From Candidatus Micrarchaeota archaeon (GTDB lineage: Archaea > Micrarchaeota > Micrarchaeia > Norongarragalinales > SBBD01), in contig JAHJQN010000004.1 in assembly GCA_018819225.1 (NCBI GenBank), positions 128,001 to 192,000 on the forward strand: a stretch of DNA of 64,000 nt, given 5' to 3'. Position 1 is the first letter of the stretch. Every line of letters begins with the position of its first letter. Both the position numbers and the translations under genes were made by a program. The notes under the pieces were generated by a model. That model saw only the letters and a program-made list of their open reading frames with translations, had not been told where the DNA came from and ran no database searches. Of the stretch, positions 3,082 to 64,000 are shown in pieces.

Positions 3082-5736
3082 TTACCGTTTCCCTCGTGCT
3101 AAACGCGCCGTCCCACCGCCTGCTGCACCCAATTTCCTTAATAGATCTAACGCGTTCCGGCCACTCTTTTCATGCGCAGCGCACGTCACGACTCCGTGCT
3201 CATTATATAGGCACGCCGAGAATCCGGGAACCGCCGCAATTTGAAGCGCTACTTTCGTTAGCAGCGCAGAAGGTAACGAAACGCATTGTTCGATGTGAGT
3301 GCTTTGAATGTTTTTCGCTTGGGAAATCAAGCGGTCAGCCAAATGATCGGCAACGTGCCGGTGCACCCGATCCAATTCATTGCCGCGTTGTTTCCATTCA
3401 TCAAAAAAGCGTTTAGACACTTTAGGCAACTCCTCTTTCTGAACGGAAAACGCGGAGGATGCGACATCCAATAACTCTTCATGGGTTTGCACGAGTTCCA
3501 ACGCCTTCAGGCCCGCAACAAATCGAATGCGAATCACGCCATCCTGAACCTGCTCCACGGATTTGATCTTGAAAAAACCGATATCCCCCGTATTGTGAAC
3601 GTGCGTTCCCCCACAGCACTGCACATCAAAATCCTTCACGTCAATGACGCGAACCGTTTTCCCGATGGCTCCAGCCCCAGTGTATAAACGAAAACCGTAT
3701 TTTCGTTCCGCTTCGCCGCGTTCCAAATCATAATGCGTGACGGGAATGCGTTTCAAAATCGTTTCATTAACGAGCAATTCAATGGCGCGAACCTGTTCGC
3801 GCGAGGGTTTTTCATAGTGGGTGATATCCAAATGGGCTTCATGCGTGTCTTTTCGTGCGCCCGCCTGCCAGACGTGACTTCCCAAAATGCGCATGCAGGC
3901 TTGCAGAAGCAAATGCGTGGACGTATGATGACGCATGATGGTGCGGCGACGCGTTTCATTGACCGCTCCCTGCACGGACTTGCCTACGGCGAACGCATTT
4001 GGTTTATCCACGTAATGCAGGATAATGTCATCCACTTTTTCCACGCGGATAACCCGCGCATTTCCAAGCTCTCCGGTATCATAGACTTGTCCGCCGCCTT
4101 CCGGATAAAACGCGGTGGCTTCCAAAACAATCGCGTCCCCGAATATCGCAAGGACTTTGCTTTTGAAGACCATGGGATCGGATTCGTCATAATAGAGCAT
4201 CCGCGTTTTAGGCAGGGATTGAAAGCGCGGGTCCTCCATGAGACCGTGCCTCTTTTTCGACCCCTTATCCATGACGTGCTTTTCCGTTAGCTTATGATAA
4301 AAATCCGTAGGCACATGCATTACAGATCCGGATTGACGGGCCACCCGCTCGATGATTTCGGGCGTCAAGCCATGCGATTCGTATAAAAGCATCATACGCT
4401 CCGAAGAAATGGAACCCGCTTTAATGATATCCGTTGCGAGCTTCGTCGCTTTATGAGTGGTCTCGTCAAACTTGCGTTTTTCAACGTCCAGAATTTTTCG
4501 AGCCGTAACCAAATTTTCCGAGAGCTCGGGAAACACGTCGCGGTATTCGCGAGCTTGCTTCTCCATGATATCATACAACTCAAATTGAAATTCGTTGTTT
4601 TCAATGAACGAAAATGCGCGGCGGGCTAAAACGCGCAAATTATAGCCGCCTGCGCTATTGGATGGAAGCGCGCCATCCGATAAGGCAAACAACAACGCGC
4701 GTGAATGATCGGCTATGGCGTAAATATTTTGGAGCGGCAACACCGTCTTCTCAAGCTCCGTTAAAGAAACCCCCAAATCCTTCGCAATACGCTGCTTTTC
4801 TTCTTTAACGCTTTTGACTTCCTCGACATTGAGTTTAGCCGCCAGTTTGGAATATCGTCTAAACAAATCATCGTGTCCTGAAAGTCCGACTTGCTTTTTC
4901 ATGAAAGCTATTTCGCGGGGAAAAACCGAGTCATAAACGGATGGAGTGCCATTGTAAAACCAAAGCAACCGCTCGAACCCCCATCCGACATCAATGACCT
5001 TCAACGGAAGTTCCTCTTGTTTTCCGTTACTCCACCGATAATTCATGAACACGGAGTTCACCAACTCGAGGCCGCCGGAAAAGCTTTCCATGGACGGGCC
5101 ATACGCTGAAAAGTCGGGCATCGCCCACAAATCCTCAACGTAGGTAATTTCATTCTTAGGAATCTTGAGAACCTGCGTCAGTAAATTATAGTTATGTTGA
5201 ATGCACTCATCCATCCAATATCCGTCTTTTTTTCCTTTGGATTGGAATGCGTGCTGGCCGGCCATCGTAAAACAACTCAAGTGGCGACCGGTCACACCGA
5301 CATTGGCAATGTCCACAAATCGGAGGCATATTTGAGGAACCATCAAGGGATTTGCGGGATATTCGAATACCACCTTGCCGCGTTCCAAGCGCTGAAAATC
5401 AACGATGCTGGCAATCGTAAAATACAAGTCATCACGCCACCTGGAAATCACGGGATAACGGGGTATGACTTCATGCCCGGCTTTCTTCCAGAACGAGGCA
5501 AACTTCTTCCAGAATGCAGCGTAATCCAGTTGTTCGCCCTCCCGGCGCTTTCCTATAAATGAATAAGGGTTATGACTGGAATCCCCGCAATTGGACTCTT
5601 CAGAGGTACTCCAGAAAGCATGCCCGCACGTGCGGCACATTTTGCGCGAGAATTCGTTTTTCTTGAACAACTCCACGGAGTAATAGCGAGAAGAATCCTT
5701 CGCGAAAGCTTCGGAAAGCCCTAATTTAGTTGGCAT
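3082..5736 (-). CDS. alaS: Alanine--tRNA ligase (archaeal type)
   Basis: N-terminal CxxC..FWS..CGD, RWRDDLYFTIASIVDFQ, IDVGWGFERL, IADHSR, TAFYPEGGGQ, editing HHTSTH and CGGTH motifs. Confidence 0.97.
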   Translation of the reverse strand: MPTKLGLSEAFAKDSSRYYSVELFKKNEFSRKMCRTCGHAFWSTSEESNCGDSSHNPYSFIGKRREGEQLDYAAFWKKFASFWKKAGHEVIPRYPVISRWRDDLYFTIASIVDFQRLERGKVVFEYPANPLMVPQICLRFVDIANVGVTGRHLSCFTMAGQHAFQSKGKKDGYWMDECIQHNYNLLTQVLKIPKNEITYVEDLWAMPDFSAYGPSMESFSGGLELVNSVFMNYRWSNGKQEELPLKVIDVGWGFERLLWFYNGTPSVYDSVFPREIAFMKKQVGLSGHDDLFRRYSKLAAKLNVEEVKSVKEEKQRIAKDLGVSLTELEKTVLPLQNIYAIADHSRALLFALSDGALPSNSAGGYNLRVLARRAFSFIENNEFQFELYDIMEKQAREYRDVFPELSENLVTARKILDVEKRKFDETTHKATKLATDIIKAGSISSERMMLLYESHGLTPEIIERVARQSGSVMHVPTDFYHKLTEKHVMDKGSKKRHGLMEDPRFQSLPKTRMLYYDESDPMVFKSKVLAIFGDAIVLEATAFYPEGGGQVYDTGELGNARVIRVEKVDDIILHYVDKPNAFAVGKSVQGAVNETRRRTIMRHHTSTHLLLQACMRILGSHVWQAGARKDTHEAHLDITHYEKPSREQVRAIELLVNETILKRIPVTHYDLERGEAERKYGFRLYTGAGAIGKTVRVIDVKDFDVQCCGGTHVHNTGDIGFFKIKSVEQVQDGVIRIRFVAGLKALELVQTHEELLDVASSAFSVQKEELPKVSKRFFDEWKQRGNELDRVHRHVADHLADRLISQAKNIQSTHIEQCVSLPSALLTKVALQIAAVPGFSACLYNEHGVVTCAAHEKSGRNALDLLRKLGAAGGGTARLARGKR

Positions 5737-50484: not shown

Positions 50485-53064
50485 TTATCCCCGCTTTCTA
50501 TAAAGATAAAGCGCGGCCGACAAAAAGAACGGAATCAGGAATACCGAAAAATCCGGTACACTTCCTGCCACTGCGTTAGGACGTTGGATCGAACACGTCG
50601 CGCTACCAAAAGAAGTCTCCGCCCTCAATTGATAATCGCCCGCCAGTTCCGTTTCAACAGAATAAGTTAACGCATTTTTTTCCTGACTGATAAACGAATT
50701 GGGCGAACCCGTCATTAATATGTCCGAATTGGAACACGCCACCCCGTTCTTCAAACACTGAACAACCACATTCGTCAAATCGGATGCAGTCAAACGGGGA
50801 CAATCCAGTAAAAGCAGATTCGATGGAGGCTGGGAATAATTGGGGTCCTGTGGGCCGTTGTTCCCGTCATTTCCATCACCCAATGCCACAATAACGATTG
50901 CTTGATCCTGACCTTCTGCACCCTCATCGTCCGTAGCCCATAACTGCACGGTATAAACGCCGACTTCCGTACAGGAAAGAAGGGCCGTCGCAGTAACCAA
51001 ATCGGTTCCAATCCCTTCATAAGCCATATCGTTCAGCGTACAAGGAGGATTGCTTATCAAAGACCATTCCGCTTGTTCGATAATGTCACCGGTATCCGAA
51101 GCGGTTCCCGCCAAAGAAATCGTTCCGAACACGTCAGCTGCATAACCGGATCCTGCATCCACAATCGGAGGCTCATTCGGCCCGCACGAACACGAAAACG
51201 GGTTGCATACATCTCCTGGATTCAGACAGTCGGAATCGTCTTCGCATGCTGCACCGCAAGAGCCTATGACACATTCGTACACTCCGGGAACGCACGAACA
51301 AGAGGTTGGGTTGGCGTCGCATGAAAAACCTTGGTACGTTTGCCCGCCCGAACAAGGAAGATTGCAGTCGAAATCATCATTGCATTCAGCGCCGCAAATC
51401 TGCACGGATTCCCAACACGTACCCGGAGCCCAATCTCCGAAAGAACATTCGCAGGCATCCGGACACCCAAACGTCCGTCTTTCAAAGATATTTGACGGCA
51501 TGCATTGCCATGCATCACCCGAGCAATCCGCATCCACCTCACATCCGCACGACTCTACGGTTGTACGAATACTGTCGACTACCGGCCTCATGGAACCGTC
51601 TGAAGTTCTCAATTCAGAGCGCCAACGCACCAGCGCCGAGCGGGGGTTCACGTTGTACCAAACGCCGGGAATAACGGAAGACCACGCGTTTCCCAAACCG
51701 TAATTCAGGAAATAGGATACCGATGTTAGAGGATCCAAGGCATCCACTTTCGTCAATTTCGCTCTTTTAATTTTTCGACCGTCATCCAGCACCGCACCGC
51801 CCAGATCCAAAGACTGGCCGCGCGCCAAGTCCGCGTAACGCGTTTTCGACAAGTCAATGAGAACGCCGCGATTCGGAAATTGGGGCCCACCGACACTGTA
51901 ACTCGTATACCCCGTTTCCGAAAACACGTCGAATCCATAAGCGAAATAAGCGACAGACCCAACGCTGCCGAACCATTTTTCTCCAAGCGATGAAATACCG
52001 TCGATGTTCGTCAAATCGAGTACGTAAAGGGGGTTTGGGTTTCGGGTCGATGAAAAACAAGTAAGATAACCGGTATGATCCTCGATTTGAAGGAAAATGA
52101 TTGTGCCAGGCCATTCGTTTTCGACGCAATCCGCAGGAAATTCCGGCGATGGAATGATGCGGCGGATCGATGGCGCGTTCGGATCGGAGACGTCTAGCAC
52201 ATAGAATTTTGCCAACTTCGGGGCCGTAAACGAATCGTCCGCGACCCAAAGAAATCCGTCGAGCCATTCCGCCTCCACTCCCCCGTCGATTAGAATATTT
52301 CCGCGAACTTGGTAATTGTTAATCAACGAAACATCCAGGACATGCATTCGGACGTCGGATGGGGAAATGATGTATTCCGCAACGTATAGGAAATTGCCTT
52401 GTTTCTCCAAAATTTTGGCCGTATTCGAGATTCCGGGCAACGTGTTACTAAAAATTTCAGTAGGCACAGCCGGAGTGGAAACATCGTATATAAAGAAAGA
52501 TGTTCCGAGCGTGGCGTACAGTCTGTCCCCGACAACCACCAACGAAGAATGCCCGCCGCGGAAATGCGATCCAACCAACACGGGATTCAACGGATCGGAA
52601 ATGTCCCATATGGACAATCGTTGGTCTCCTGCAAGCTTCTCGGAAAGGAACAAGTAATTATCGTCGTAATCGTAGGCCGTAACCATGCCATCGAGTTGAA
52701 ATTCGCGTTCGTACACCGGATTTTTTGGGTCCGACAAACCGTACACGATCATTCGATCACTAGGAGGTAGACAGGAGTTGACAGAGCCTCTCGGAAGGTA
52801 ATACAACGCCTGACCTTTTACTACGAGAGGAATCGAAACGCAATGACGGTAAAAACGGTCGGCCCACGCCAGATTTTCCAAAGACGGAATCAGAGGCAAG
52901 GTGAGTACGCCTGGAGGCGCCGTATCCCACGAAGCGTTCGTTTCCAAGATATCTTTGTAGAGTTCGTCCGTGAATTCTTCCGTGTAAAACGTTTCCTGCA
53001 ACGCGGTAGCGGGTAGGAAGAGAACCGCTAGGAACAGGAGCAACCGCAAACCATGATTTTTCAT
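50485..53064 (-). CDS. Surface protein: LVIVD-type repeats, Cys-rich repeats, PKD-like domain, PEF-CTERM-like sorting signal
   Basis: Signal peptide; IWDISDP.NP/DVSDP repeats; CxxDxDC x3; PPIVDAG..TDDEG; VPDF-TM-RKR tail. Confidence 0.82.
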   Translation of the reverse strand: MKNHGLRLLLFLAVLFLPATALQETFYTEEFTDELYKDILETNASWDTAPPGVLTLPLIPSLENLAWADRFYRHCVSIPLVVKGQALYYLPRGSVNSCLPPSDRMIVYGLSDPKNPVYEREFQLDGMVTAYDYDDNYLFLSEKLAGDQRLSIWDISDPLNPVLVGSHFRGGHSSLVVVGDRLYATLGTSFFIYDVSTPAVPTEIFSNTLPGISNTAKILEKQGNFLYVAEYIISPSDVRMHVLDVSLINNYQVRGNILIDGGVEAEWLDGFLWVADDSFTAPKLAKFYVLDVSDPNAPSIRRIIPSPEFPADCVENEWPGTIIFLQIEDHTGYLTCFSSTRNPNPLYVLDLTNIDGISSLGEKWFGSVGSVAYFAYGFDVFSETGYTSYSVGGPQFPNRGVLIDLSKTRYADLARGQSLDLGGAVLDDGRKIKRAKLTKVDALDPLTSVSYFLNYGLGNAWSSVIPGVWYNVNPRSALVRWRSELRTSDGSMRPVVDSIRTTVESCGCEVDADCSGDAWQCMPSNIFERRTFGCPDACECSFGDWAPGTCWESVQICGAECNDDFDCNLPCSGGQTYQGFSCDANPTSCSCVPGVYECVIGSCGAACEDDSDCLNPGDVCNPFSCSCGPNEPPIVDAGSGYAADVFGTISLAGTASDTGDIIEQAEWSLISNPPCTLNDMAYEGIGTDLVTATALLSCTEVGVYTVQLWATDDEGAEGQDQAIVIVALGDGNDGNNGPQDPNYSQPPSNLLLLDCPRLTASDLTNVVVQCLKNGVACSNSDILMTGSPNSFISQEKNALTYSVETELAGDYQLRAETSFGSATCSIQRPNAVAGSVPDFSVFLIPFFLSAALYLYRKRG

Positions 53065-53143
53065 GATAAAACAACGCCATAAGTCAATTTAATGGTAACG
53101 ACTGCGAGAGAAGCCGGAAAACTCCGATAAACGGTTAGAATAT

Positions 53144-54805
53144 TCACGCATCCCGAGATCGAGGAGGCTCATTTATTATTTTCGTTTGCCCTTGCCTTGA
53201 TGAAAAATAAATGGCGGCTGTCACTATAACAACTACCAACGCGAAAGCCAGTGCAGCATACTTACTAGAAACACCGTACGCGGCCTTCCGCACGTTCCGA
53301 ACGAACGAGCCCCAGGCATCCCGTGCTTCCAGCTCGCGTTTCTCGCGCATGTATTCCTCGTAGACGCGAAGAGCGGCCTCTGATTCCTGCGGATCCTCGC
53401 CCAACTGCTTCAAACGCTTCAGCACCTCCGTCTTGTCTTCGTCGGAGACCGCGCTTCCCATGTATGACCAATCCACGGCCACTTCGTCGTTATCCTGTTG
53501 AATTGTTTGCTGAACGTTTTCTGGAATTATTGAGCTCGACGGAATAGGGGTTTCGTTACTATTACCAAGCGGATTGTCCGTTGGAGTCCCCGGAGGTTGA
53601 GAAGGAATGGGGGAGGGAGTCGTGGTAGGCGGTAACGGAGCTGTGGGCGAAGCGTTTCCAGGCGGTGTTGGTTGAGCAGGAAACGCGGGCAACGTGAATT
53701 CGAGCGTTCCGTAACCATTTACTACCGCATTAAATTCGTGCTCCTCTCCTTGCAAGCTAAATGAAAAAACGTAAGGATTATGATAACTCATTCCCTGCGT
53801 GCTGGAATTCGTATGGTTGAAAAGGGGGATCCACGCTCCTTCCTCCCCGACATTCGTTTCAAAAACGATTTCTCCGGATTGGTCACGAACCGTGAGCTCA
53901 CCTGATGCAGGGGAACCATCGGAGTAGAACAACTTGACGAGCACGTCCCAGCCAATGGCGAACTTCCAATTCATCCAAGCCGGGCCCGTGTTGGGAGCGA
54001 ATCCCTCGGGCGCATTAAGAAACCGATTGAATCCGTTCTGTTCGATGTCTTTTTCGTTGTTATTAAATGTGGAATTGCGGATCGTGAACATGTTGCTGGA
54101 ATGGGATACGCCGTAAGTGAGGTTGATAAATGAATGGTTAACGTAGGAATTGGAAGCGGTGTTGTCGTCATCAACCAACCCGTAAGTGGAATATTGCTCG
54201 CGGTTTCCTAGTATCGTGTTGTGCTCGATCCGATTGTGGCGGGCTCCTCCGGACTCCGGGTTGTCGGATATGACGATGCCCAGGAGGTTACGTTCCAGCA
54301 TATTGCTCTTGACAAAATTGAAATTCGCCCTCTCGAAACGGTAGGAGGCCAAAATGGCGATCCCGGTTTTCGCATCCGACACCCGATTGTTCTCTATGGT
54401 GCAGTTGTTCACGGTTTGGAGACTGACACCTGCACTCTGGAGGGAATGCAGGACGATTTCGTTTCCCCGCACGGAACAAAAATCTGACCGTTCACCGAGA
54501 ATGGCGGTCGGCACGCCATGCTCCCACGGATATTCCGTTGCTTGCAACCGGCAGTTGGCAATGGAAACATTTGGCGCATTAGTAAAATTGATGCCACGGT
54601 AGTAAAAAATGATGGAATGGCCTGCGCAGTCAAGGCCTACGTCGCCGGAAATGATGTTGAAACACGGTGGTTCCAGCGAGGTGGAAACGTTGTTGGCCAG
54701 CACGTAAGCGCCCGGTTGATCGATTACGGAACAGGACGTGAGCACTTGCGCTCCCGCTGTCCCGATTCCCACTAAGAATGCCAGCAACAAGAGCGCCTTT
54801 CGCAT
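53144..54805 (-). CDS. Surface protein with right-handed beta-helix (NosD/CASH) repeats
   Basis: Signal peptide; C.VI..PG.Y.L..N; repeated N.I.NN..GI; Pro/Thr linker; C-terminal TM. Confidence 0.82.
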   Translation of the reverse strand: MRKALLLLAFLVGIGTAGAQVLTSCSVIDQPGAYVLANNVSTSLEPPCFNIISGDVGLDCAGHSIIFYYRGINFTNAPNVSIANCRLQATEYPWEHGVPTAILGERSDFCSVRGNEIVLHSLQSAGVSLQTVNNCTIENNRVSDAKTGIAILASYRFERANFNFVKSNMLERNLLGIVISDNPESGGARHNRIEHNTILGNREQYSTYGLVDDDNTASNSYVNHSFINLTYGVSHSSNMFTIRNSTFNNNEKDIEQNGFNRFLNAPEGFAPNTGPAWMNWKFAIGWDVLVKLFYSDGSPASGELTVRDQSGEIVFETNVGEEGAWIPLFNHTNSSTQGMSYHNPYVFSFSLQGEEHEFNAVVNGYGTLEFTLPAFPAQPTPPGNASPTAPLPPTTTPSPIPSQPPGTPTDNPLGNSNETPIPSSSIIPENVQQTIQQDNDEVAVDWSYMGSAVSDEDKTEVLKRLKQLGEDPQESEAALRVYEEYMREKRELEARDAWGSFVRNVRKAAYGVSSKYAALAFALVVVIVTAAIYFSSRQGQTKIINEPPRSRDA

Positions 54806-54851: not shown

Positions 54852-56654
54852 TTATTGGTCCGCAAACGTCGCCGGATTGATGAACATCGGTTGGTTGTTT
54901 CCGTATACTTCCAACAAGTGGTTCGGGAACGGAGAAAGCGTATCATGAACCGTTCCAAATGCACCGGACCAGTCGCCTGCGTACGCCTCCGTTGCAGCAC
55001 AGGCTAGGCCAATGCAGATTGCCGCAGGTCCCAAATACCTTTTTCCATTAGAAGCAAGCCGTAACAGGCTACGGCCGAGCAAACGGGACTCCGACTTGAG
55101 TGCCGATGAGAAAAGACCGGACTTGATCGCTCCTGGAACGTATTTAAGGGGCGTCTTGAGTACTTCACGATATTCGGCTATCCACGGAGATTTGGCGCTG
55201 GTCCAATAAAAACGTTCGAACGACTTAAAGCCTCCAAGCGCTGCAACTTCTTCTGCCTGCAATCCAAGCGGATTGAACCGCTTGGTCAACGTGGCCTGAA
55301 CGCGCGTTGCCGCATATTCCTTCAACACGTGGCTTTTTGCAGACGCTGATCCTAGATAAGTGCGTTGCGGGATGCCAGACGACCTTTTCAACAACTCGGA
55401 ATTGGAATGAACGCTTTGGAACTGGCCCAAGGCATGCGAAGCCTCGTGAGCGAACACGCCGATGTCGACATTACCCGGGAATACGAGTAATTTTTCCGAC
55501 GCGTCGAAAAACGCTTTATTCGTGTACGGATTAATTCCGACTTGATAACCTGCCTTTATGGGAGCCAACAACCTGCTGAAACCGGATGACGCAAGCGTAT
55601 CGTAATGGAGAGACAAACCGCTCGGAAGGTTTCCGACAGGAGGACCACTCTGAAATCCGTCAGGATCCACGAACTTTAACGGGTTGTTTTCCGCATACGC
55701 GTACGAATTGCCTGTTCCGTCGAACAACGGATCGACGGCCAAAAACCTCCCGATGGAAGGATGGTAGTATCGCGCGCCGAAATACGCAAAACCGCTAGCG
55801 TCAAGCTCGTTTCCGGAAAACTTGAAAGGAGTCAACGCGGCAGGAGACAATGCTTTCCCGAACGGTTCGTAATGCGAATTGCTTACTACCACGGTATCGG
55901 AATTGACGTCTTTGGAGACCACGCGCGAGCTTCCAAGGTAGTCAGCGGCCACGTACTCCAATTGCTTGACTCCCTGGCGCGGCACTTCCTGGGCAACCAG
56001 TTTATCCCCGCCGTAATAGAATTCGGAAGCAGCCGGAGATGGGGTAGGAGTCGGCGTAGGCGTGTTGGTAACCGTTGGGGAAGGCGTCGGAGTGTTCGTC
56101 ACCGTTGGAGTAGGCTCGTTATAGTAACAATTTCCAGAACAGCACACCAAGGTTTCAGAACAGTAGCCTTGGGGGCGGTCATAGCACTGGTAGAAATCCG
56201 AGCACGAACCCGGTAAGCAACGGGAATTCACGTAATAACCGCAGGGAGTAGGAGTCGGTGAGGCCGTCGGTGCTCCCGGACAATTTCCACTACAACAGAC
56301 AAACCCCGTTGAACATCCTTGAATACCGTCACCTACACTATGACAGTCTTGACCAAATCCAAAGCAATAAGAATGCTCACCGTCTTGAGCTACGCAGCGT
56401 CCACCCAATTCATTGCAGAACGCGCCTCCACCGCCTCCACAGTCTTCGCCAATACAGTTACCCATACCGGGCTCAATAAGGCCAATCCAACCTAGGGAAG
56501 ACGCTATACCGCTCGCACCCTTCCAGTCTAAGGCTATCCAAATTATTGCGAGGACCAACAATATGGTGAAAAAGGCTGCCAATGTTTTCTTCGTGAACAA
56601 AGAATGGGTGCGCTGGTGCCACGATTCCTTTTTTCTCCGTTGGCTGGTTGGCAT
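54852..56654 (-). CDS. Membrane-anchored Rhs-associated core protein with HExxH C-terminal (toxin-like) domain
   Basis: N-terminal TM, Cys-rich repeats, PT linker, DYLGS..YEPFG..FSGNELD..YFGARYY..GRFLAVDP..YAYAENNPL..DPDG, then HEASH. Confidence 0.9.
   Translation of the reverse strand: MPTSQRRKKESWHQRTHSLFTKKTLAAFFTILLVLAIIWIALDWKGASGIASSLGWIGLIEPGMGNCIGEDCGGGGGAFCNELGGRCVAQDGEHSYCFGFGQDCHSVGDGIQGCSTGFVCCSGNCPGAPTASPTPTPCGYYVNSRCLPGSCSDFYQCYDRPQGYCSETLVCCSGNCYYNEPTPTVTNTPTPSPTVTNTPTPTPTPSPAASEFYYGGDKLVAQEVPRQGVKQLEYVAADYLGSSRVVSKDVNSDTVVVSNSHYEPFGKALSPAALTPFKFSGNELDASGFAYFGARYYHPSIGRFLAVDPLFDGTGNSYAYAENNPLKFVDPDGFQSGPPVGNLPSGLSLHYDTLASSGFSRLLAPIKAGYQVGINPYTNKAFFDASEKLLVFPGNVDIGVFAHEASHALGQFQSVHSNSELLKRSSGIPQRTYLGSASAKSHVLKEYAATRVQATLTKRFNPLGLQAEEVAALGGFKSFERFYWTSAKSPWIAEYREVLKTPLKYVPGAIKSGLFSSALKSESRLLGRSLLRLASNGKRYLGPAAICIGLACAATEAYAGDWSGAFGTVHDTLSPFPNHLLEVYGNNQPMFINPATFADQ
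56039..56117 (-). repeat. Pro/Thr tandem linker (PTVTNTPTP x2)
   Basis: EPTPTVTNTPTPSPTVTNTPTPTPTPSP. Confidence 0.7.
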
Positions 56655-56669
56655 GTCCGAAAACCTGTT

Positions 56670-59600
56670 TCAACTACAGCTGATCCCGCTGACAGGAACA
56701 TCCGATAACGTCTGGATGACGTTGCCCCCACTGAAAGCGTAATAGGTAGCAAGTGCTTGCGAAGCGGTTTTAACGACTTTTTTCACGCGGTTGCCGCTTT
56801 CATCGTAATAGTATTGCTCGCAGTTTCCGTTCGCATAACGAATCCGCTTCAAGTTTCCTTCGTAATCGTAATCCAGTTGCCGATCGTAAGATGAACCGCC
56901 GACGCAGTTCGTCATACTTATGACGTGGCCCTGCGAGTCGTACGAGTAAAGACAGCCATTTCCTGTTCCGGCATCTCCTGCACGCTGCAACCGGTTGGTT
57001 CCCGAATAGTACGAATACGTTCGCGGGGGTTCATCCGAATCCTCTTCCGTCATTCGGTTGCCCACGGAATCGTACGAATATCCCATCATGCCTTGCGGGA
57101 AACCGTAGTATCCGTCGTACGCCCAAATGGCGGTCAAGCGGTCAAGGGCATCGTATGAGAAGGCCGCGCCTTTCCCGAGATCCGTCCGGTGCAACGAATC
57201 CAAATTCCCTCCGGGAGTGTAAGCGTACGTTTCCTGCCACAACGGATCCCCATTTTTCGCATAAAACGAATCCGATTCCAAAAGGAAACGGTTATCGTAA
57301 TCAAAGGATTGCCAGGCGTCATGCCCAAAAGTAATACGACTTTGCCGATTATACCCATCGTACGCATATTTTGCGAGTCTCGCGAACGCTCCGTTGAGAG
57401 GCTTCCGCAGGATTTCATCTAATCTTCCCAACGAGTCGTACAGATATTTTATTTGCGTTCCTCCAGGATAAGTCGCTATTTCGAGGAGACCCGCGTTATT
57501 GTAGGTATATGTCAGCCGGAAGCCTACCGAAGAGAAAGGCTTGCCGTTATTGGACTGGAACCGCGTGCATTCGCTTGCGGTTACCGATCCATCCCTATCG
57601 AAGTCGAGCATGGGATGGTAGTACGATCCGGCGTAAGACGCAGGGGTATTTGAACACGTCTGACCCATCTCGGTTACATCCGACGAATCCACGAGGCCAT
57701 CCATATTGATGTCAGGGCACCCGTAGGAAAACACTTCCCCAGTGTCGGTTCGTTTGCACGACCCATGGAAAAACTGCGTTTCCCGCGAGACGTATGCTCG
57801 TGAGTCGTATTCAAACCAATGCGCCGTAACTTTGTTGGATGAAGCAAACAATTTTCCTTTATGGTAAGGCGACGCGGAGGAATCGAAAGTATAATAGCGA
57901 TCAGGAACCCCTCCGAACGACACTTTGCGCAGCCGGTTTATCGCGTCGTATTCGTAATTGAATATTTTTTCGCCTCCGTTCACAGTTTTCGTAACCTCGT
58001 TTCCGGCATCATCATACGCGTGATGGAGTGAACCCGCGTCCGGACTAGAAACGTCCGTGGCACGGCCCAACAGATCGTATACGTTAACCGAAATCAAACC
58101 ATTTGGAGCGAACACCGTGGTGGGCCGCCCAGCGGAATCCCGTTCGTACCACGTAACCCCTCCAGTGGGATCTCGTTCCTCATAAACGCGCCCAAGAGAA
58201 TCGAGATACGACATGTACAAGTTACCACCCGTATCGGAAGAAACGGAGATACCGGGAGTTTCCGCATTATTCTGAAACGAGTCAGCGAATACCTGGAAAT
58301 GTTTGTTTTTCTGCCGGTTGCTGACGACGATGCGCGCTGTAACGCCGTCCGCATAAACACTCGCCCGATAGGAATGCCCCGCTTTCAAGAAAACCGTCCG
58401 CCTGGAATCGGTGACTTGGGGAGCGTAAAACCCGTAAGAACACGTATGCATCGACACCCGACCCACGTAATTGTTCCAAAGTTCTGAAGAGGTTATCGTC
58501 AGGTCTTCAAGTTGTGCTGAAGCAATGTCACCATCTTCCGCACCAGATATACTACAGTAAACGTCGTAGAATCCATCAGATGTAATCATAAAACCAGTCT
58601 CTCCATAACCGCTCGATCGACTAAGATCCGCCCATACCGCTGATTGCACTACTTCCCAGGAAGGCTGGCTTCCCGCAGGGTAGTCGGCCTCCAGAATTCC
58701 TTCCGGAGAATCAGCGAATTCTTTCCTCCAATAGACAGGAGGCAACGAAGCCGTATGCGGTACCGACGATTGAACAATCCGCGAGTACGCGTCGTACGCT
58801 GTTTCCGATATCAAGTCCGAATTGCCGTTCTCGACTTCCGTTCGAATAAGCCTTCCCAATCCATCGAAGTAGCTACGCGTTTCCTTCCAAAGCTCGCCGG
58901 AAATGCGTTCCCGTTCGGTTATGCGGTTAAGGTTTGAACCGGATAACGCTTCGCCAGCAATATAATAATCAAACGTCGTAGACGGAGTTGAATCTCCCGG
59001 TTTCAAGACCGTTCTCAAACGACCGAACTCGTCATAATTATACGTTGTGCGGCTTCCGTCGGGTGCGGTCATACGTTCGAGCATGCCTTTGGAATTGTAT
59101 TTGTACGTCGTTGCTAGCCCCACAGCGTCTTCCGTACACGTGATGAGAGCGTGCGCCCACTGGCCACCTCCGTTGCTGCATTGGTCGTTGTTCCCGAAAT
59201 AAAGCAGAGTTTGTTTTCCGTTCTCATCGCGCTGGAGAGTGGGATTGCCGTACGAGTCGTAAGAATCCGTGAACGAAACGACTTCCGAATTCGCAGTTTT
59301 CGACTCATGAAATTCCTTCGGCCTCTGTACTCCCGAAAAATCGGAATAGACGTTTCTTGAAGATGCAACCAGTTGTCCGTTGGAAGTAACTTGGGAACTC
59401 TTGACTTCAGAAAACCGATTTGCATCGGCCAGCAGATCATTGGTTTCCCATTCATACTCATTTGTGACCACGCGTTCGTTGAAACCGCCGGGCTCCACCG
59501 TCGTTGAACGCATAAAACCATTAACTCCGTCGTCCACGTAATCGTACGATGTTTTCGACCCCACACCGCGAACAGCGGACTCGATCTCCATTGTTCGGGA

Positions 59601-62255
59601 CAGTCTCGAATACTGCTTAGCGATTTCATTTCGACCGATCACTTTACCCATTAGAACGGAATGGTCGTAATTATTCTCGGTAACGGAAACAACGCCTCCA
59701 CGAGCATCGTAAGTCGTGGTCCGAATCGGAAGGCCGTGCAAATCCGTGGAATCAAATCTCCCTCCGAATCGTTGGCCTTCAGGGAGTTCCATCGCATCGC
59801 AGTTGCCGTCCGCGTTACCGTCAAAACAAGTGTAACCCCCATCACCCGAATAATAAGTCACTTTAAGGTGCGCATCATGATTATCGGAATCCGAACACGA
59901 ACCGTACATGGGAATTAACCAGTAGGTTCCGGATGCTAAATCGTTACCGTTGTTGTTTTTCCACCTCAATTGGCAATAACCGTCGGAATCCGTCGTGCAC
60001 TGAACCCCCACATTTTGACCTGCACCAAACGCTTCAACATCAACGTTGGGAGGGCCGAAAAAGAGCGTGGGCTTGCTGGCCGGGTTTCCTCCAATGGAAA
60101 GGGGATAGTTTTCACAGTTGTATCGCGAGCGGACATAAATTTTTCCCGTGCTGGGAAAATCAATTGAAGTCGTGAAATCGTTAACGGTATAACCGTAAGG
60201 AGCGATGGGCTCTACTTCTAAAAAGTGGTCGGAAGTAACGGTCGTAACACGGGAATAACGAACCTGAGCCGGAGTATATCCGCCTCCGAATGACAAGCGG
60301 TCTTCTCCAGCAAACCGAGTTCTCGATCGCGGTTCCAAGGAAGCCACTCCGGAGGTCTCACCACCCGAGTAAACATCATCGTATCCGTCATCCTCATCCG
60401 CATCAAACGGATGGACATTATAGAAATAACGCGTGTGAAAACAATTACCTAGGCCGTCACATGTTGCCATTAGGGATACTCGGGCACCTCCACCATAATG
60501 GGCGTCGTCGCGGTTTGCGAAATTGTTTCCAAAGAGGAATTGGTCGGGGTAGAAGTTGTTGACGCGGTTGTAGCGATCCGATTCGTAAAAAATGGAGGTA
60601 TCGCCACCGGTGGGCCACGTGATTTTGGAAAGCGACCAAACCGTAGGATCTATGCGCGAGGCACCTTGCGGATTGTCGTCATAAGCAGAACAATCCGCGC
60701 AATAATAGCCCCAGCGGTCCGACTTGTATTTCTCGTAGCGCGGATTGGAATATTGGCCTGGGGCGGCATCCTGCGCGTATTCGAATATCGTGGTCTGCAG
60801 CTTCGTTCCGTCGCTCCCGTGTTCTTCGATGCGTTCGAGGGCCAGCCGGCCTTTTCCATCTTGTTGAACGTCTAGAGAGCCTACTGCCAATAAATTCGTC
60901 TCGTGAATTAAGTTAACGCTCTTAAGCTCGTTGCTGAGGTCGTTATTGGAATACAGGCGGATGGAACGCAGACGCGGAGCTTGTGCGGAAAAGTCGCTAC
61001 TGAAACCATCGAAACGCGCATCGTCGTAATCAAGGAACGCGGTATGCGTATCCGTCTCGATGCGGCTGAGAACTTTCACTTGCGTAAACAGTTCGCTTTT
61101 TGCATGCCAATTGTTGTTATCCAGAACGTTCCAAGACCCGTCGTACGGGTACTTGACTCTAAATAAGGGTTCCCACTCGTCATAGAAAAAGGAAATGTGA
61201 TTTGATCCGTCAGGGGATGTAATCGATGATAGCATCCATTCCGTATTGAAATCCTTGAGGAAACGCATCTCATAGAATTCGCTCGAGTCATGAGAATTTT
61301 CGCTGCGGGACATCAAGGCATGCGCTTCACCAAGAGGTTTGAACACCGAAACCGTTCCGCCGTTCCCGCCATATTCGTATCGAGTACCGTCGACCGTTGT
61401 AACCGTGAATGCGTTGATGGTTCCTCCGGATTTGCTCATCAGCACTTCTTCGGCAAATCGTTCCGAAGAGCCAATTTGAAGGTATCCTTTCGACTTGGAA
61501 AAAACGAAGGAATCCTCTTGTGCGTACAAGATGCGCCCTGCCACATCACTCCCCGTGACGAAAAAGATATCGGGCGTGACATTGTCCGAACCGTTGAAAT
61601 AATTGGGATTATTTGAATAAAAATAGCCGGTAGCCCCTCCTTCGTTGCCATTTCCGTTCACCACCAATTCGTCGCACGGAATAGAGCGGCCATAGGTATC
61701 CGCATGATCGGGAAGCGGATCAATATTAAGCGAAAAAACCGCGCGCCCCTTGGCCGAACTTCCCGTAATCAACATCGTCATCACAGACGGAGCAATCGAT
61801 GTGACGAATTTGTTGAAATGCACAAGCAAATACCCGAATTTGAGCCATGGATCACCACTGCACTTAATGAATTGTTCCGTTCGAACCGTATCGCCACCGG
61901 ATGGATAATACTCGTCGGGAATGCCGATGACTTGACGGCTCACGGATCCGACATCCAAACTCCAGCCGAGGCCCACGGAAGAAGCGAATTGCTCCAACGG
62001 AATACCCGCCGTGTAACGAAGCGTGACCGGAAAGTCCATTCCCCCTCGGCCGGGAACGGTCATCACATTGAGGGGAAGCGAAAAATCTCCAGTGGAGAGG
62101 TCGACGGAAGCGCTAGATGAAGCGTCTTGAAAAGAAGAAGGCACCGGAGAAGTGGGAGCAGCCGATGTACCAGTTGAAATCAATGTCAGAAAAAAGAAGC
62201 TTACCAGGAGATGAATTTCGCGCGATTTCATGAATTTATTATGTATCGTACGCAT
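56670..62255 (-). CDS. Secreted Rhs/YD-repeat shell protein (TcB/SpvB-like N-terminus), lacking Rhs core
   Basis: Signal peptide; VDLSTGDF..P.TLRY..VGLGWSL; many YD..GR repeats; dockerin-like insert; ends before core. Confidence 0.9.
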   Translation of the reverse strand: MRTIHNKFMKSREIHLLVSFFFLTLISTGTSAAPTSPVPSSFQDASSSASVDLSTGDFSLPLNVMTVPGRGGMDFPVTLRYTAGIPLEQFASSVGLGWSLDVGSVSRQVIGIPDEYYPSGGDTVRTEQFIKCSGDPWLKFGYLLVHFNKFVTSIAPSVMTMLITGSSAKGRAVFSLNIDPLPDHADTYGRSIPCDELVVNGNGNEGGATGYFYSNNPNYFNGSDNVTPDIFFVTGSDVAGRILYAQEDSFVFSKSKGYLQIGSSERFAEEVLMSKSGGTINAFTVTTVDGTRYEYGGNGGTVSVFKPLGEAHALMSRSENSHDSSEFYEMRFLKDFNTEWMLSSITSPDGSNHISFFYDEWEPLFRVKYPYDGSWNVLDNNNWHAKSELFTQVKVLSRIETDTHTAFLDYDDARFDGFSSDFSAQAPRLRSIRLYSNNDLSNELKSVNLIHETNLLAVGSLDVQQDGKGRLALERIEEHGSDGTKLQTTIFEYAQDAAPGQYSNPRYEKYKSDRWGYYCADCSAYDDNPQGASRIDPTVWSLSKITWPTGGDTSIFYESDRYNRVNNFYPDQFLFGNNFANRDDAHYGGGARVSLMATCDGLGNCFHTRYFYNVHPFDADEDDGYDDVYSGGETSGVASLEPRSRTRFAGEDRLSFGGGYTPAQVRYSRVTTVTSDHFLEVEPIAPYGYTVNDFTTSIDFPSTGKIYVRSRYNCENYPLSIGGNPASKPTLFFGPPNVDVEAFGAGQNVGVQCTTDSDGYCQLRWKNNNGNDLASGTYWLIPMYGSCSDSDNHDAHLKVTYYSGDGGYTCFDGNADGNCDAMELPEGQRFGGRFDSTDLHGLPIRTTTYDARGGVVSVTENNYDHSVLMGKVIGRNEIAKQYSRLSRTMEIESAVRGVGSKTSYDYVDDGVNGFMRSTTVEPGGFNERVVTNEYEWETNDLLADANRFSEVKSSQVTSNGQLVASSRNVYSDFSGVQRPKEFHESKTANSEVVSFTDSYDSYGNPTLQRDENGKQTLLYFGNNDQCSNGGGQWAHALITCTEDAVGLATTYKYNSKGMLERMTAPDGSRTTYNYDEFGRLRTVLKPGDSTPSTTFDYYIAGEALSGSNLNRITERERISGELWKETRSYFDGLGRLIRTEVENGNSDLISETAYDAYSRIVQSSVPHTASLPPVYWRKEFADSPEGILEADYPAGSQPSWEVVQSAVWADLSRSSGYGETGFMITSDGFYDVYCSISGAEDGDIASAQLEDLTITSSELWNNYVGRVSMHTCSYGFYAPQVTDSRRTVFLKAGHSYRASVYADGVTARIVVSNRQKNKHFQVFADSFQNNAETPGISVSSDTGGNLYMSYLDSLGRVYEERDPTGGVTWYERDSAGRPTTVFAPNGLISVNVYDLLGRATDVSSPDAGSLHHAYDDAGNEVTKTVNGGEKIFNYEYDAINRLRKVSFGGVPDRYYTFDSSASPYHKGKLFASSNKVTAHWFEYDSRAYVSRETQFFHGSCKRTDTGEVFSYGCPDINMDGLVDSSDVTEMGQTCSNTPASYAGSYYHPMLDFDRDGSVTASECTRFQSNNGKPFSSVGFRLTYTYNNAGLLEIATYPGGTQIKYLYDSLGRLDEILRKPLNGAFARLAKYAYDGYNRQSRITFGHDAWQSFDYDNRFLLESDSFYAKNGDPLWQETYAYTPGGNLDSLHRTDLGKGAAFSYDALDRLTAIWAYDGYYGFPQGMMGYSYDSVGNRMTEEDSDEPPRTYSYYSGTNRLQRAGDAGTGNGCLYSYDSQGHVISMTNCVGGSSYDRQLDYDYEGNLKRIRYANGNCEQYYYDESGNRVKKVVKTASQALATYYAFSGGNVIQTLSDVPVSGISCS

Positions 62256-62507
62256 ATTAAAATCTTGGTTAAAACGGCTTCAAACGTGTTGGAAAGTGTC
62301 CAGTGAGTAGTCACGCACTTTCATTTTATAGAATGAAGTTGAAAAGCATTTTCGGACATAAGGGTAAATCATCAAGGAGTGCACGGCGAGGACGTGTAAG
62401 CGACAAAATGGCATTCCGAAGTAAACGGAATCACCCGTTTCAGCATAACATACCGTGTTAGACGTTCGCGGACACACGCTTTTATAGATTAGATGAATAG
62501 TTTTCGC

Positions 62508-64000
62508 ATGACACGCATTCTGTTCGCAGCAGTGTTGTGGACGCTCATATTTCCAATTGTTTCAGCCGCCAGCATCAATAGCCCGATTATGCTCGAGGAA
62601 TACTTCAATCAAGGAACGCACTCCGGCACGGAAGTCGTCGCGGGCAAACTGCAGCTCGTTCAAGGCGGCGGACAATACGTAGCTAGCGGCACCTGGGTTT
62701 CACCGGCATTCGATGCAGGAGGAAGCGCGCTCTGGAATTCAATGGAAGGAAGCGCCAATTGGGAAGCGTTCGGCCTCAACCTTATCCAGAATGGGGGGTT
62801 TGAACAGCCGCTTGAAGGCTATTGGTACACCAGCGCGAATCGCGGTACCCAGGACTGCACGGACCGTTTTTCAGGCTCTTGCTCGATGAAGCTGGTTAAT
62901 CCGGCGGGAGAAGCCTCTGCAACATTCCGATCGCAAATCAATCCCAGTGGCGGACAGGAATCCGAACAGCACAACATTTTCCGCGTGCTGCCAACAGAAA
63001 CCGTACATTTTACTGCCAGGTTGAAAACAGATATTCCTTCAGGAAAACTGAGTCCGATGCTGCTGTTCATGAAGAAAACGGCCGATGGACGGTATTACGA
63101 TCAGCCCATGGTCGGCAGCTGGCGCGGAATTCCCGAAGTCTGGTTTGGCGGTAGGACCGGAGAGTTTGTACGCTTCCAAGGCGAATGGCGCATGGACGAG
63201 TACCTGCCCAACGATGGCGGGGAATACTACGGTTACCCTTACGCAGGACTGGAATGGCTTACCAATTTCGCTCCCACGAGAACATTCAAATTGGACGATA
63301 TACGGATATTCAAGGACTCCCGCATTAAGGTTGAGGCGCGTACGACGGACGCGCCGGACTGCACCGACATATCCAGCAAAACGTTTTATGGACCACGACT
63401 TCTTTACGACAACGAGATCGCTATTCCTGCTCCGGGAGCCCGATGCATCCAGTTCCGGCTCACATTCACGCGAATCGACTCGACGCATACGCCTGAATTA
63501 AACTCGCTTTCAGTAAAATTCTCCCGCGCGTATCCGTTTACTCGACCAGCCCTCGACACCGTTCCCGCGCCATTCAATTACATTACAAACAATGTGGACT
63601 CCCAAGGCCGCGTGGTTTTGGATCCATCCGATGGTGAACTACGCTACCAAATAACCGGAAAAAAAGCCAAGTTTTTCGGTACCCAAATCGACCCGATACC
63701 CGACGGATTTACCCCGGATACGTGGGGGGATTACATCTGCCATTATGCCGAAAAATACGGTTTCAACTTGATCAAGATGCTAGAGGACAGCGCCCGTTAC
63801 GGCGTGTTCATTGAATCCGAGGCCGATGTCCGGGCGGGACTGGATAAGATGGTTCCATTATTCCGTTCGTGCAGGGCGAAAGGAATTCGGATGTTTTTCC
63901 GAATGATTCCAAACGGATACCTTAACGGAAGACTGGGCAACCACTTGTGCGATGCCTACTACTGCGGCTCATTTGAATTCGTGGACGATCAGGTAACTGA
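62508..64000 (+). CDS. Secreted protein with CBM4/9-like domain and probable glycoside-hydrolase-like domain (3'-truncated; absent from ORF track)
   Basis: MTRILFAAVLWTLIFPIVSA signal; NLIQNGGFEQ..W..FSG..S.KL..LDDIRI; then GKKAKFFGT..GFNLIKM; frame open to window end. Confidence 0.75.
   Translation, partial: MTRILFAAVLWTLIFPIVSAASINSPIMLEEYFNQGTHSGTEVVAGKLQLVQGGGQYVASGTWVSPAFDAGGSALWNSMEGSANWEAFGLNLIQNGGFEQPLEGYWYTSANRGTQDCTDRFSGSCSMKLVNPAGEASATFRSQINPSGGQESEQHNIFRVLPTETVHFTARLKTDIPSGKLSPMLLFMKKTADGRYYDQPMVGSWRGIPEVWFGGRTGEFVRFQGEWRMDEYLPNDGGEYYGYPYAGLEWLTNFAPTRTFKLDDIRIFKDSRIKVEARTTDAPDCTDISSKTFYGPRLLYDNEIAIPAPGARCIQFRLTFTRIDSTHTPELNSLSVKFSRAYPFTRPALDTVPAPFNYITNNVDSQGRVVLDPSDGELRYQITGKKAKFFGTQIDPIPDGFTPDTWGDYICHYAEKYGFNLIKMLEDSARYGVFIESEADVRAGLDKMVPLFRSCRAKGIRMFFRMIPNGYLNGRLGNHLCDAYYCGSFEFVDDQVT

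Follow-up and report, generated by a model that had tools for sequence, protein, structure and literature searches.

A probably modular Rhs system in a micrarchaeon, divided between a coreless shell gene and a stalk-core-toxin gene

The genome of a Candidatus Micrarchaeota archaeon codes for an Rhs protein that is divided between two adjacent genes. They lie in the stretch of 64,000 nucleotides analysed here (the window; positions 128,001 to 192,000 of contig JAHJQN010000004.1, assembly GCA_018819225.1). The first gene codes for P0001, a YD-repeat shell that ends before the Rhs core, and the second for P0002, in which the core is found between a leader and stalk of its own and a variable carboxyl terminal tip. 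Genes of the second kind are named here stalk-core-toxin (SCT) genes. The split Rhs is real rather than a broken gene, and is probably a modular weapon. The reading that we favour, with moderate confidence and on the strength of the sequences, is that P0001 and P0002 are a naturally two-part Rhs cocoon which would be assembled extracellularly, a shell receiving interchangeable plug-toxin cartridges. Assembly outside the cell is proposed because both chains have Sec-type leaders, and interchangeability because there are several SCT proteins per shell, unlinked SCT genes and polymorphic tips.

The source genome (G000; 1.37 Mb, 8 contigs, 90% complete) includes the window as G000:C2:128001-192000, G and C numbers being used for genomes and contigs. 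Among the other genes of the window are archaeal-type ones for EF-2 and for a family B DNA polymerase. Its EF-2 is most similar, among named genomes, to those of Candidatus Micrarchaeota / Norongarragalinales (76-80% identity), which places the source among the DPANN archaea.

The break between shell and core and its conservation

The two open reading frames (ORFs) and the spacer between them are organized as follows (window coordinates):

56670..62255 (-): coreless Rhs shell gene, P0001, intact ORF of 1861 codons
56655..56669 (-): spacer of 15 nucleotides from the shell stop codon to the P0002 start
54852..56654 (-): stalk-core-toxin gene, P0002, intact ORF of 600 codons, TIGR03696 at 75.2 bits

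A preliminary description of this DNA had reported a two-gene Rhs split with a gap of 15 nucleotides, and both ORFs are found on the minus strand as described. The shell, core and tip, rather than being parts of one polypeptide, are distributed over these two ORFs. Pfam and NCBIfam profile searches restrict the RHS_repeat family to P0001 (PF05593, E 2e-20; 4.5e-26 on the P0001 carboxyl part), in which the Rhs core TIGR03696 was not found. The core is restricted to P0002, where TIGR03696 (Rhs_assc_core) matches residues 262-333 (75.2 bits, cut-off 32.5) directly ahead of the tip.

The position of the break is defined by comparison with fused archaeal and bacterial Rhs proteins, in which the motif GNRxxK is followed by strand A (xYxWDxxxxxxxvvxE), strand B (xYxhAGxxliAE) and the core sequence xYYxxDxLGS. 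P0001 aligns with this order through GNRVKK and contributes strand A. Its end reads GNRVKK-VVKTASQAL-ATYYAFSGGNVIQ-TLSDVPVSGISCS, the last residues before the stop codon being ATYYAFSGGNVIQTLSDVPVSGISCS. P0002 aligns from strand B on, with FYYGGDKLVAQ coming after the stalk and ahead of the core, and there is neither overlap nor loss between the two chains. From GNR to DxLGS there are ~49 residues (both chains summed, tails excluded) versus 52 in the fused family members. Note that MAFFT can also shift strand A onto strand B, the two strands being alike, and that it is the element count which favours the seamless partition. This partition against fused Rhs proteins bears out the earlier proposal that the sequence interrupted at the end of P0001 resumes in P0002. 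It likewise agrees with a split far later than that between TcB and TcC, the SCT protein having just strand B before its core. The absence of a frameshift, also claimed previously, is upheld by the ~210 in-frame codons of P0002 (leader, Cys-rich modules and stalk) that separate the stop codon of the shell gene from the point at which the Rhs sequence is taken up again, and by the presence of the same break in another gene pair 160 kb away.

This second pair of G000 (locus L010) is composed of the coreless shell P0004 (1983 residues) followed directly by P0003 (499 residues). The two ORFs overlap by 7 nucleotides if P0003 begins at a GTG codon, or are ~13 nucleotides apart if it begins at ATG. 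In P0003 a classical signal peptide is followed by a stalk bearing 11 N-glycosylation sequons, after which come strand B, the core, a DPTG motif and a tip unrelated to that of P0002. Identity between the two pairs is 33% in the shell carboxyl part and 40% in the core; the break point is nonetheless at the same strand.

Coreless shells that halt after strand A are eight in number: P0001, P0004, G001:C9, G001:C12, G002:C16, G003:C37, G006:C7 and L107, the last one on a groundwater metagenome contig. Presence of the same break in G001, G002, G003, G006 and the groundwater contig shows that the pair is not a lone decayed copy, the case held open in the preliminary description, and the profile survey of other genomes found the shared split point in shells of the same taxonomic family together with leader-stalk-core proteins in relatives. 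Four SCT genes are located directly downstream of a shell gene and in the same orientation. The G001:C9 shell (3331 residues) has an SCT gene on either side, the L107 shell (2178 residues) has one 3.4 kb away, and no SCT gene adjoins the G001:C12 shell, which is the closest shell to P0001. The P0002 orthologue of G001, P0018, is coded by contig C57. Adjacency of shell and SCT genes is thus not required, because their counterparts in G001 (C12 and C57) are on different contigs.

The coreless shell of G006:C7 (G006:C7:297001-317000, locus L022, 4854-11448 (+)) is divided further into three consecutive leader-bearing genes coding for 690, 689 and 801 residues. Three SCT genes, all on the opposite strand, flank this group.

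Rhs cores are present in 9 of the 10 other genomes of the same taxonomic family, mostly in frames of 440-750 residues, in none of 30 genomes from other families of the order and, phylum-wide, in 11 of 301 genomes. The typical SCT of the family is ordered as leader, stalk, strand B, core and a tip of 180-260 residues, with strand B retained before the core in all 15. SCT genes outnumber shells (four versus two in G001), are often unlinked to them and code for polymorphic tips, which fits the exchangeable plug plus cargo that had been proposed. A related-locus search with P0002 and P0021 across the genome contigs found nothing. Of 119 bacterial proteins homologous to the shell carboxyl part, the core is part of the same chain in 111, and the coreless state is therefore derived.

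A phmmer search of 1.84 billion representatives with P0002 as query gave 109,969 matches. Among the best 149 of these, 66 are complete SCT-type proteins (Met start, hydrophobic amino terminus, core within 450 residues and a tip of 131-288 residues) and only 11 are long. In a core tree of 136 rows the SCT versus fused label requires 6 changes, compared to 41-48 in the five shuffles listed out of 200. Fused cores from the family group in a separate clade, whereas its SCT cores are intermixed with metagenomic SCT cores. Note that this tree was built with FastTree from a short alignment whose sampling is biased by similarity. Judged from these sequences, the SCT is a gene type of its own.

Four metagenomic proteins of ~3300 residues (P0025, P0073, P0093 and P0164) have their Rhs core match in mid-protein, at about residue 1300-1400. 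A second stretch is matched in all but one of them, and P0025 has a DPxG near residue 3054. These long proteins may be tandem or nested Rhs units.

One-piece Rhs proteins, with FG-GAP-like repeats, are coded in the family by G005, G009, G010 and G006. Classical leaderless orphan fragments are found behind the fused Rhs gene of G005. At this locus (G005:C5:112001-128000, L023) the one-piece Rhs has DESG in the DPxG position and is followed by two such fragments, which repeat its last ~230 pre-core residues.

The shell, the stalk-core-toxin protein and their surroundings

The following features were delimited in the shell gene:

62157..62255 (-): putative Sec-type signal peptide, residues 1-33, ...LLVSFFFLTLISTGTSAA, assigned by reading the sequence
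61917..62093 (-): SpvB/TcB-like start motif, residues 55-113, TGDFSLPLNVMTVPGRGG...GLGWSL, PF03534 E 0.0014
56712..59162 (-): recognisable YD/RHS repeat array, residues 1032-1848, whose last element is strand A, ALATYYAFSGGNVIQ, repeat profiles
57570..57713 (-): dockerin-like calcium-loop insert, residues 1515-1562, Dockerin_1 E 0.0035, below cut-off
56673..56711 (-): short carboxyl terminal tail past the break, TLSDVPVSGISCS, containing a Cys close to its end, sequence comparison

An alternative start at Met9 gives a P0001 of 1853 residues, which is also the length of the public gene call. The preliminary description had assigned a TcB/SpvB-like amino terminus to this protein. The match to PF03534 extends over profile positions 4-59 of 287 only, so that the first ~55 positions are recognised, with a score (18.3 bits) under the cut-off of 22; the same profile scores 26.3 bits in the paralogue P0004 and 51.9 bits in fused family members. 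No FG-GAP or VCBS repeats were detected in P0001 by Pfam search, while fused family members have FG-GAP-like repeats. The closest word-based matches to the P0001 carboxyl part are large, Sec-exported, one-piece Rhs proteins of Firmicutes and Actinobacteria (~25% identity). In the AlphaFold2 model of this part (pLDDT 49.8, pTM 0.23) the beta-hairpin secondary structure alone is credible.

A Cys is present in the post-break tail of all eight coreless shells. A disulfide between this shell terminal Cys and a Cys before strand B was considered and rejected, because the SCT adjoining the G001:C9 shell has a Cys-free stalk and because Cys parity suits just one of the two G000 pairs. Dockerin-like matches are found in two of five coreless shells. 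With sub-threshold Pfam scores throughout, such modules are positioned inside the shell in G000 and at the carboxyl end past the break in G003:C37 (L100), where they are accompanied by a PT tail, and in G006:C7 (L022). Dockerin-cohesin anchoring is not supported, the dockerin matches being sub-threshold and no cohesin being found in the G000 genome.

The SCT gene has the following features:

56529..56654 (-): charged amino terminus (residues 1-23) and hydrophobic segment (residues 24-42), signal anchor or long signal peptide
56127..56456 (-): two Cys-rich modules (10 and 8 Cys, residues 67-176), both terminating in CCSGNC, sequence
56031..56117 (-): Pro/Thr stalk, residues 180-208, sequence
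55653..56030 (-): strand B, EFYYGGDKLVAQE, and Rhs core, residues 209-334, TIGR03696
54855..55652 (-): variable carboxyl terminal tip, residues 335-600 (266 residues), sequence
55434-55448 (-): HEASH (HExxH motif) in the tip, sequence
54975-55037 (-): Gly/Cys-rich hydrophobic stretch in the tip, sequence

The public gene call of P0002 begins at an internal GTG (window 56101-56103, codon 185) inside the Pro/Thr stalk. The resulting protein of 416 residues loses the leader and the Cys-rich modules. This start is probably an annotation error; the long form of 600 residues is favoured because the Cys-rich repeats are in frame and because its relatives all have a leader plus stalk.

The leaders suggest that both chains would be exported by Sec, as the preliminary description had it. 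P0002 residues 24-42 are perhaps a transmembrane anchor, a candidate put forward solely from the hydrophobic segment that follows a charged amino end of 23 residues. Membrane tethering does not appear to be a general feature of SCT proteins, because the leader of the paralogue P0003 looks like an ordinary cleavable signal peptide. SCT leaders fall in two classes, one of ordinary signal peptides and one with a long charged amino end, a transmembrane segment and then a conserved SxGFxxLGK-like motif (variants SSGFIALGK, SVGFATLGK, NGFAGFAFK and GVFGKFGFG). The latter type is found in P0002, P0018, L097, L103 and L022, and also in L026 and P0027. The motif may be a sorting or processing signal. 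No Pfam family matched the Cys-rich modules of P0002. Stalks rich in PT/PS or in N-glycosylation sequons are found in most SCT relatives.

The P0002 core is similar to the cores of TccC3 and YenC2 (PDB matches, E ~4e-13). It ends with DPDG at residues 330-333, and cleavage is predicted at DPDG|F. Asp308 and Asp330 are 22 residues apart, and the two Asp together with DPxG are invariant across the 15 SCT proteins of the family. The same spacing separates D1407 and D1429 of TseI, whose mutation abolishes the self-cleavage of its carboxyl terminus (PMC7170923). These residues fit a predicted aspartyl autoprotease.

The P0002 tip has a single homologue, the tip of P0018 (G001:C57), with 28% identity and with the H, E and H residues conserved; a word search gave no further ones. 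The HExxH motif, its conservation in P0018 and weak leads in a protein atlas suggest, with low confidence, that the tip is probably a zincin-like metallopeptidase. Tips of the 15 family SCT proteins are polymorphic: only three related pairs are found among them, HExxH is present in 6 of 15 and one looks kinase-like. The latter, coded at L100 (G003:C37) by 3863-4621 (+), has the protein-kinase-like motifs HGDxxxxN ... DFG, an unusual Rhs payload.

The neighbours of the split Rhs pair are other large surface proteins (window 50485-54805 (-) and 62493-63998 (+)). The gene next to P0002 (53144-54805) codes for 553 residues with a signal, a NosD-like beta-helix, a PT stalk and a carboxyl terminal transmembrane segment. 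It is followed by a gene for an LVIVD/PKD protein of 859 residues (50485-53064), and the third large neighbour is the unassigned ORF at 62493-63998 (+), which codes for more than 502 residues. Together these genes look like a surface-protein island.

Proposed mechanism, known systems and alternatives

According to the reading of a two-part cocoon, the first gene would provide a Sec-exported YD-repeat shell that is one beta-strand short of the entry to the Rhs core. The SCT gene would provide a leader or anchor, Cys-rich modules, a stalk, the missing last strand, the core plug and a variable toxin tip. Both chains would be taken out of the cell unfolded by Sec. The SCT protein would then bind the shell, which its strand B and core would complete and plug, with the tip enclosed. 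The core would cut at DPDG|F, freeing the tip. The stalk, and in P0002 perhaps the membrane anchor, would keep the loaded cocoon on the cell surface, where its target could be a host or a competitor. One kind of shell could be loaded by different SCT genes.

The nearest analogue is the BC subcomplex of toxin complexes (Tc), known from TcdB2-TccC3 (4O9X) and YenB-YenC2 (4IGL). Both systems have two separately encoded chains, the second one with the core, the autoprotease and a variable toxin, the archaeal system being known from its genes alone. They differ in that TcC accounts for much of the shell, whereas the SCT protein would give one strand (~50 residues) and the plug. Furthermore, both Tc chains are cytoplasmic while P0001 and P0002 each have a Sec leader, and P0002 adds an amino terminal anchor, Cys-rich modules and a stalk. 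TcB has a full SpvB domain and a propeller gate, in contrast to the partial SpvB match of P0001, in which no FG-GAP was seen. The Tc BC pair docks on TcA; profiles of TcA (PF18276, PF03538) had no match in the 90%-complete G000, and control genomes were likewise matchless.

WapA-type toxins of Gram-positive bacteria share with the archaeal pair the signal peptide, YD shell, core, polymorphic tip and Sec export, all in one chain, whereas here the core and tip belong to a separate gene with its own leader. Rhs effectors of the type VI secretion system (TseI, RhsA, Tse5) have a shell and core of the same kind and likewise a two-Asp signature of self-cleavage (PMC7170923). They differ from the archaeal system, which has no PAAR/VgrG-binding amino part and no type VI context, and which features Sec-type signals and two genes. 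Bacterial teneurin-like proteins are Sec-exported, surface-anchored YD shells with small polymorphic carboxyl terminal toxins. Unlike P0001/P0002 they are single-chain, with an FN-plug and an NHL domain, and no separate plug-toxin gene is described for them (PMC13018210).

In archaea, Methanosarcina acetivorans has RHS polymorphic toxins that resemble cognate bacterial systems, with stalked toxins, cassettes and immunity proteins, polymorphic toxins being rare in this domain (Zhang et al. 2012, PMC3482391). The system described here is similarly composed of archaeal Rhs-type polymorphic toxins, probably of bacterial origin, but no split or coreless shell is mentioned in that account (PMC3482391). 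The literature search gave no account of a coreless shell with a separate leader-bearing core-toxin gene; a mention in a 2019 survey of archaeal polymorphic toxins is possible.

Several observations weigh against a cocoon loaded in trans. We know of no experimental precedent for extracellular cocoon assembly with a tip of ~260 residues enclosed in trans. SCT genes are found away from any shell in G006 (two), G003:C55, G010:C38, G004 and G001:C40, and on one archaeal contig an SCT gene lies among housekeeping genes for NAC, Sec61-beta and class I LysRS, no shell gene occurring within 10 kb of it. No YD repeats were detected in the incomplete SCT-bearing genomes G004 (68% complete) and G008 (84%). 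No immunity gene adjoins P0002, the next gene being that of the 553-residue surface protein, and no conserved small gene was found after the P0002 orthologue in G001. As to the fold of the tip, no Pfam family matched it, its protein-atlas matches (M48, M27, Tox-MPTase4, Zn_peptidase_2) are sub-threshold with scores of at most 0.81 and TM below 0.5, and its AlphaFold2 model has a pLDDT of 34.8. It may be speculated that a missing neighbouring immunity gene would suit a tip acting on foreign surfaces.

The unlinked SCT genes, at times among housekeeping genes, and the two incomplete genomes with an SCT and no YD repeats detected also speak for the strongest alternative, namely that shell and SCT descend from a fission and work apart. 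The SCT protein would then be a stand-alone exported pro-toxin whose core serves as a self-cleaving release module, and the shell a cargo-less, teneurin-like adhesin or receptor. Many metagenomic SCT proteins have just ~40 residues from leader to core, and shells bear extra binding-type modules (dockerin-like inserts and Cys-rich carboxyl domains), as such separate roles would have it. This alternative has to contend with the complementarity of the break, which is at the same strand in every case, and with the maintenance of strand B before the core in 15 of 15 SCT proteins. The four SCT genes that directly follow a shell gene on the same strand, among them P0002 with its 15-nucleotide gap and P0003 with a junction that overlaps or measures ~13 nucleotides, also argue for a joint function. 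Finally, in the solved Rhs and Tc structures the core plugs the shell from within, which is the place that the two-part cocoon gives it. On balance we regard separate functions as unlikely, but as the one alternative of real weight.

The small genes might instead be silent orphan rhs carboxyl terminal cassettes stored for recombination into full-length rhs genes. The cassettes of Enterobacteriaceae are likewise short genes that start toward the end of the Rhs core region and code for alternative tips; they have no start codons, leaders or stalks and are located behind a complete rhs gene (PMC2935791). Polymorphic tips, several per genome, would suit such a store, and true leaderless orphan fragments do occur downstream of the fused Rhs gene of G005. 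In contrast, both P0002 and P0003 begin at a start codon of their own and possess a leader, SCT proteins in general have stalks and sometimes extra domains, the adjoining upstream shells have no core or tip to displace, and within the family SCT cores and fused cores form distinct sets. We consider this explanation very improbable. The least credible one is a one-piece Rhs split by assembly error, frameshift or recent pseudogenisation, for which the public gene call that begins P0002 internally could be quoted. Against it stand two uninterrupted ORFs (1861 and 600 codons), the ~210 in-frame codons that P0002 devotes to its leader, Cys-rich repeats and stalk ahead of the resumed Rhs sequence, and a layout repeated in the paralogue and in other assemblies.

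Meaning for cocoon assembly and for DPANN archaea

The prevailing view is that in Rhs and Tc cocoons the shell, plug and cargo have to fold jointly, either as one chain or with TcB and TcC co-expressed inside the cell. If the conserved plug and its cargo are a separate Sec-exported protein, completion and loading of a cocoon could take place in trans, in the extracellular space. This bears on how encapsulation works and on toxin diversification, which would proceed by exchange of small genes, in contrast to the recombination of gene ends in bacteria. The shell and the SCT protein would also make a simple protein pair for study.

To our knowledge, almost no weaponry or host-contact factors have been described for the DPANN archaea, which are wall-less or bear an S-layer, and the split Rhs bears on how they act on hosts or competitors. 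We give an even chance to the broader proposition that DPANN archaea build Rhs cocoons extracellularly, a plug-less shell, sometimes made of several pieces, being loaded in trans by interchangeable stalk-plug-toxin cartridges. If it is true, these small-genome symbionts would possess a surface weapon, or a device for interaction with hosts, built on the mix-and-match principle and independent of injection machines.

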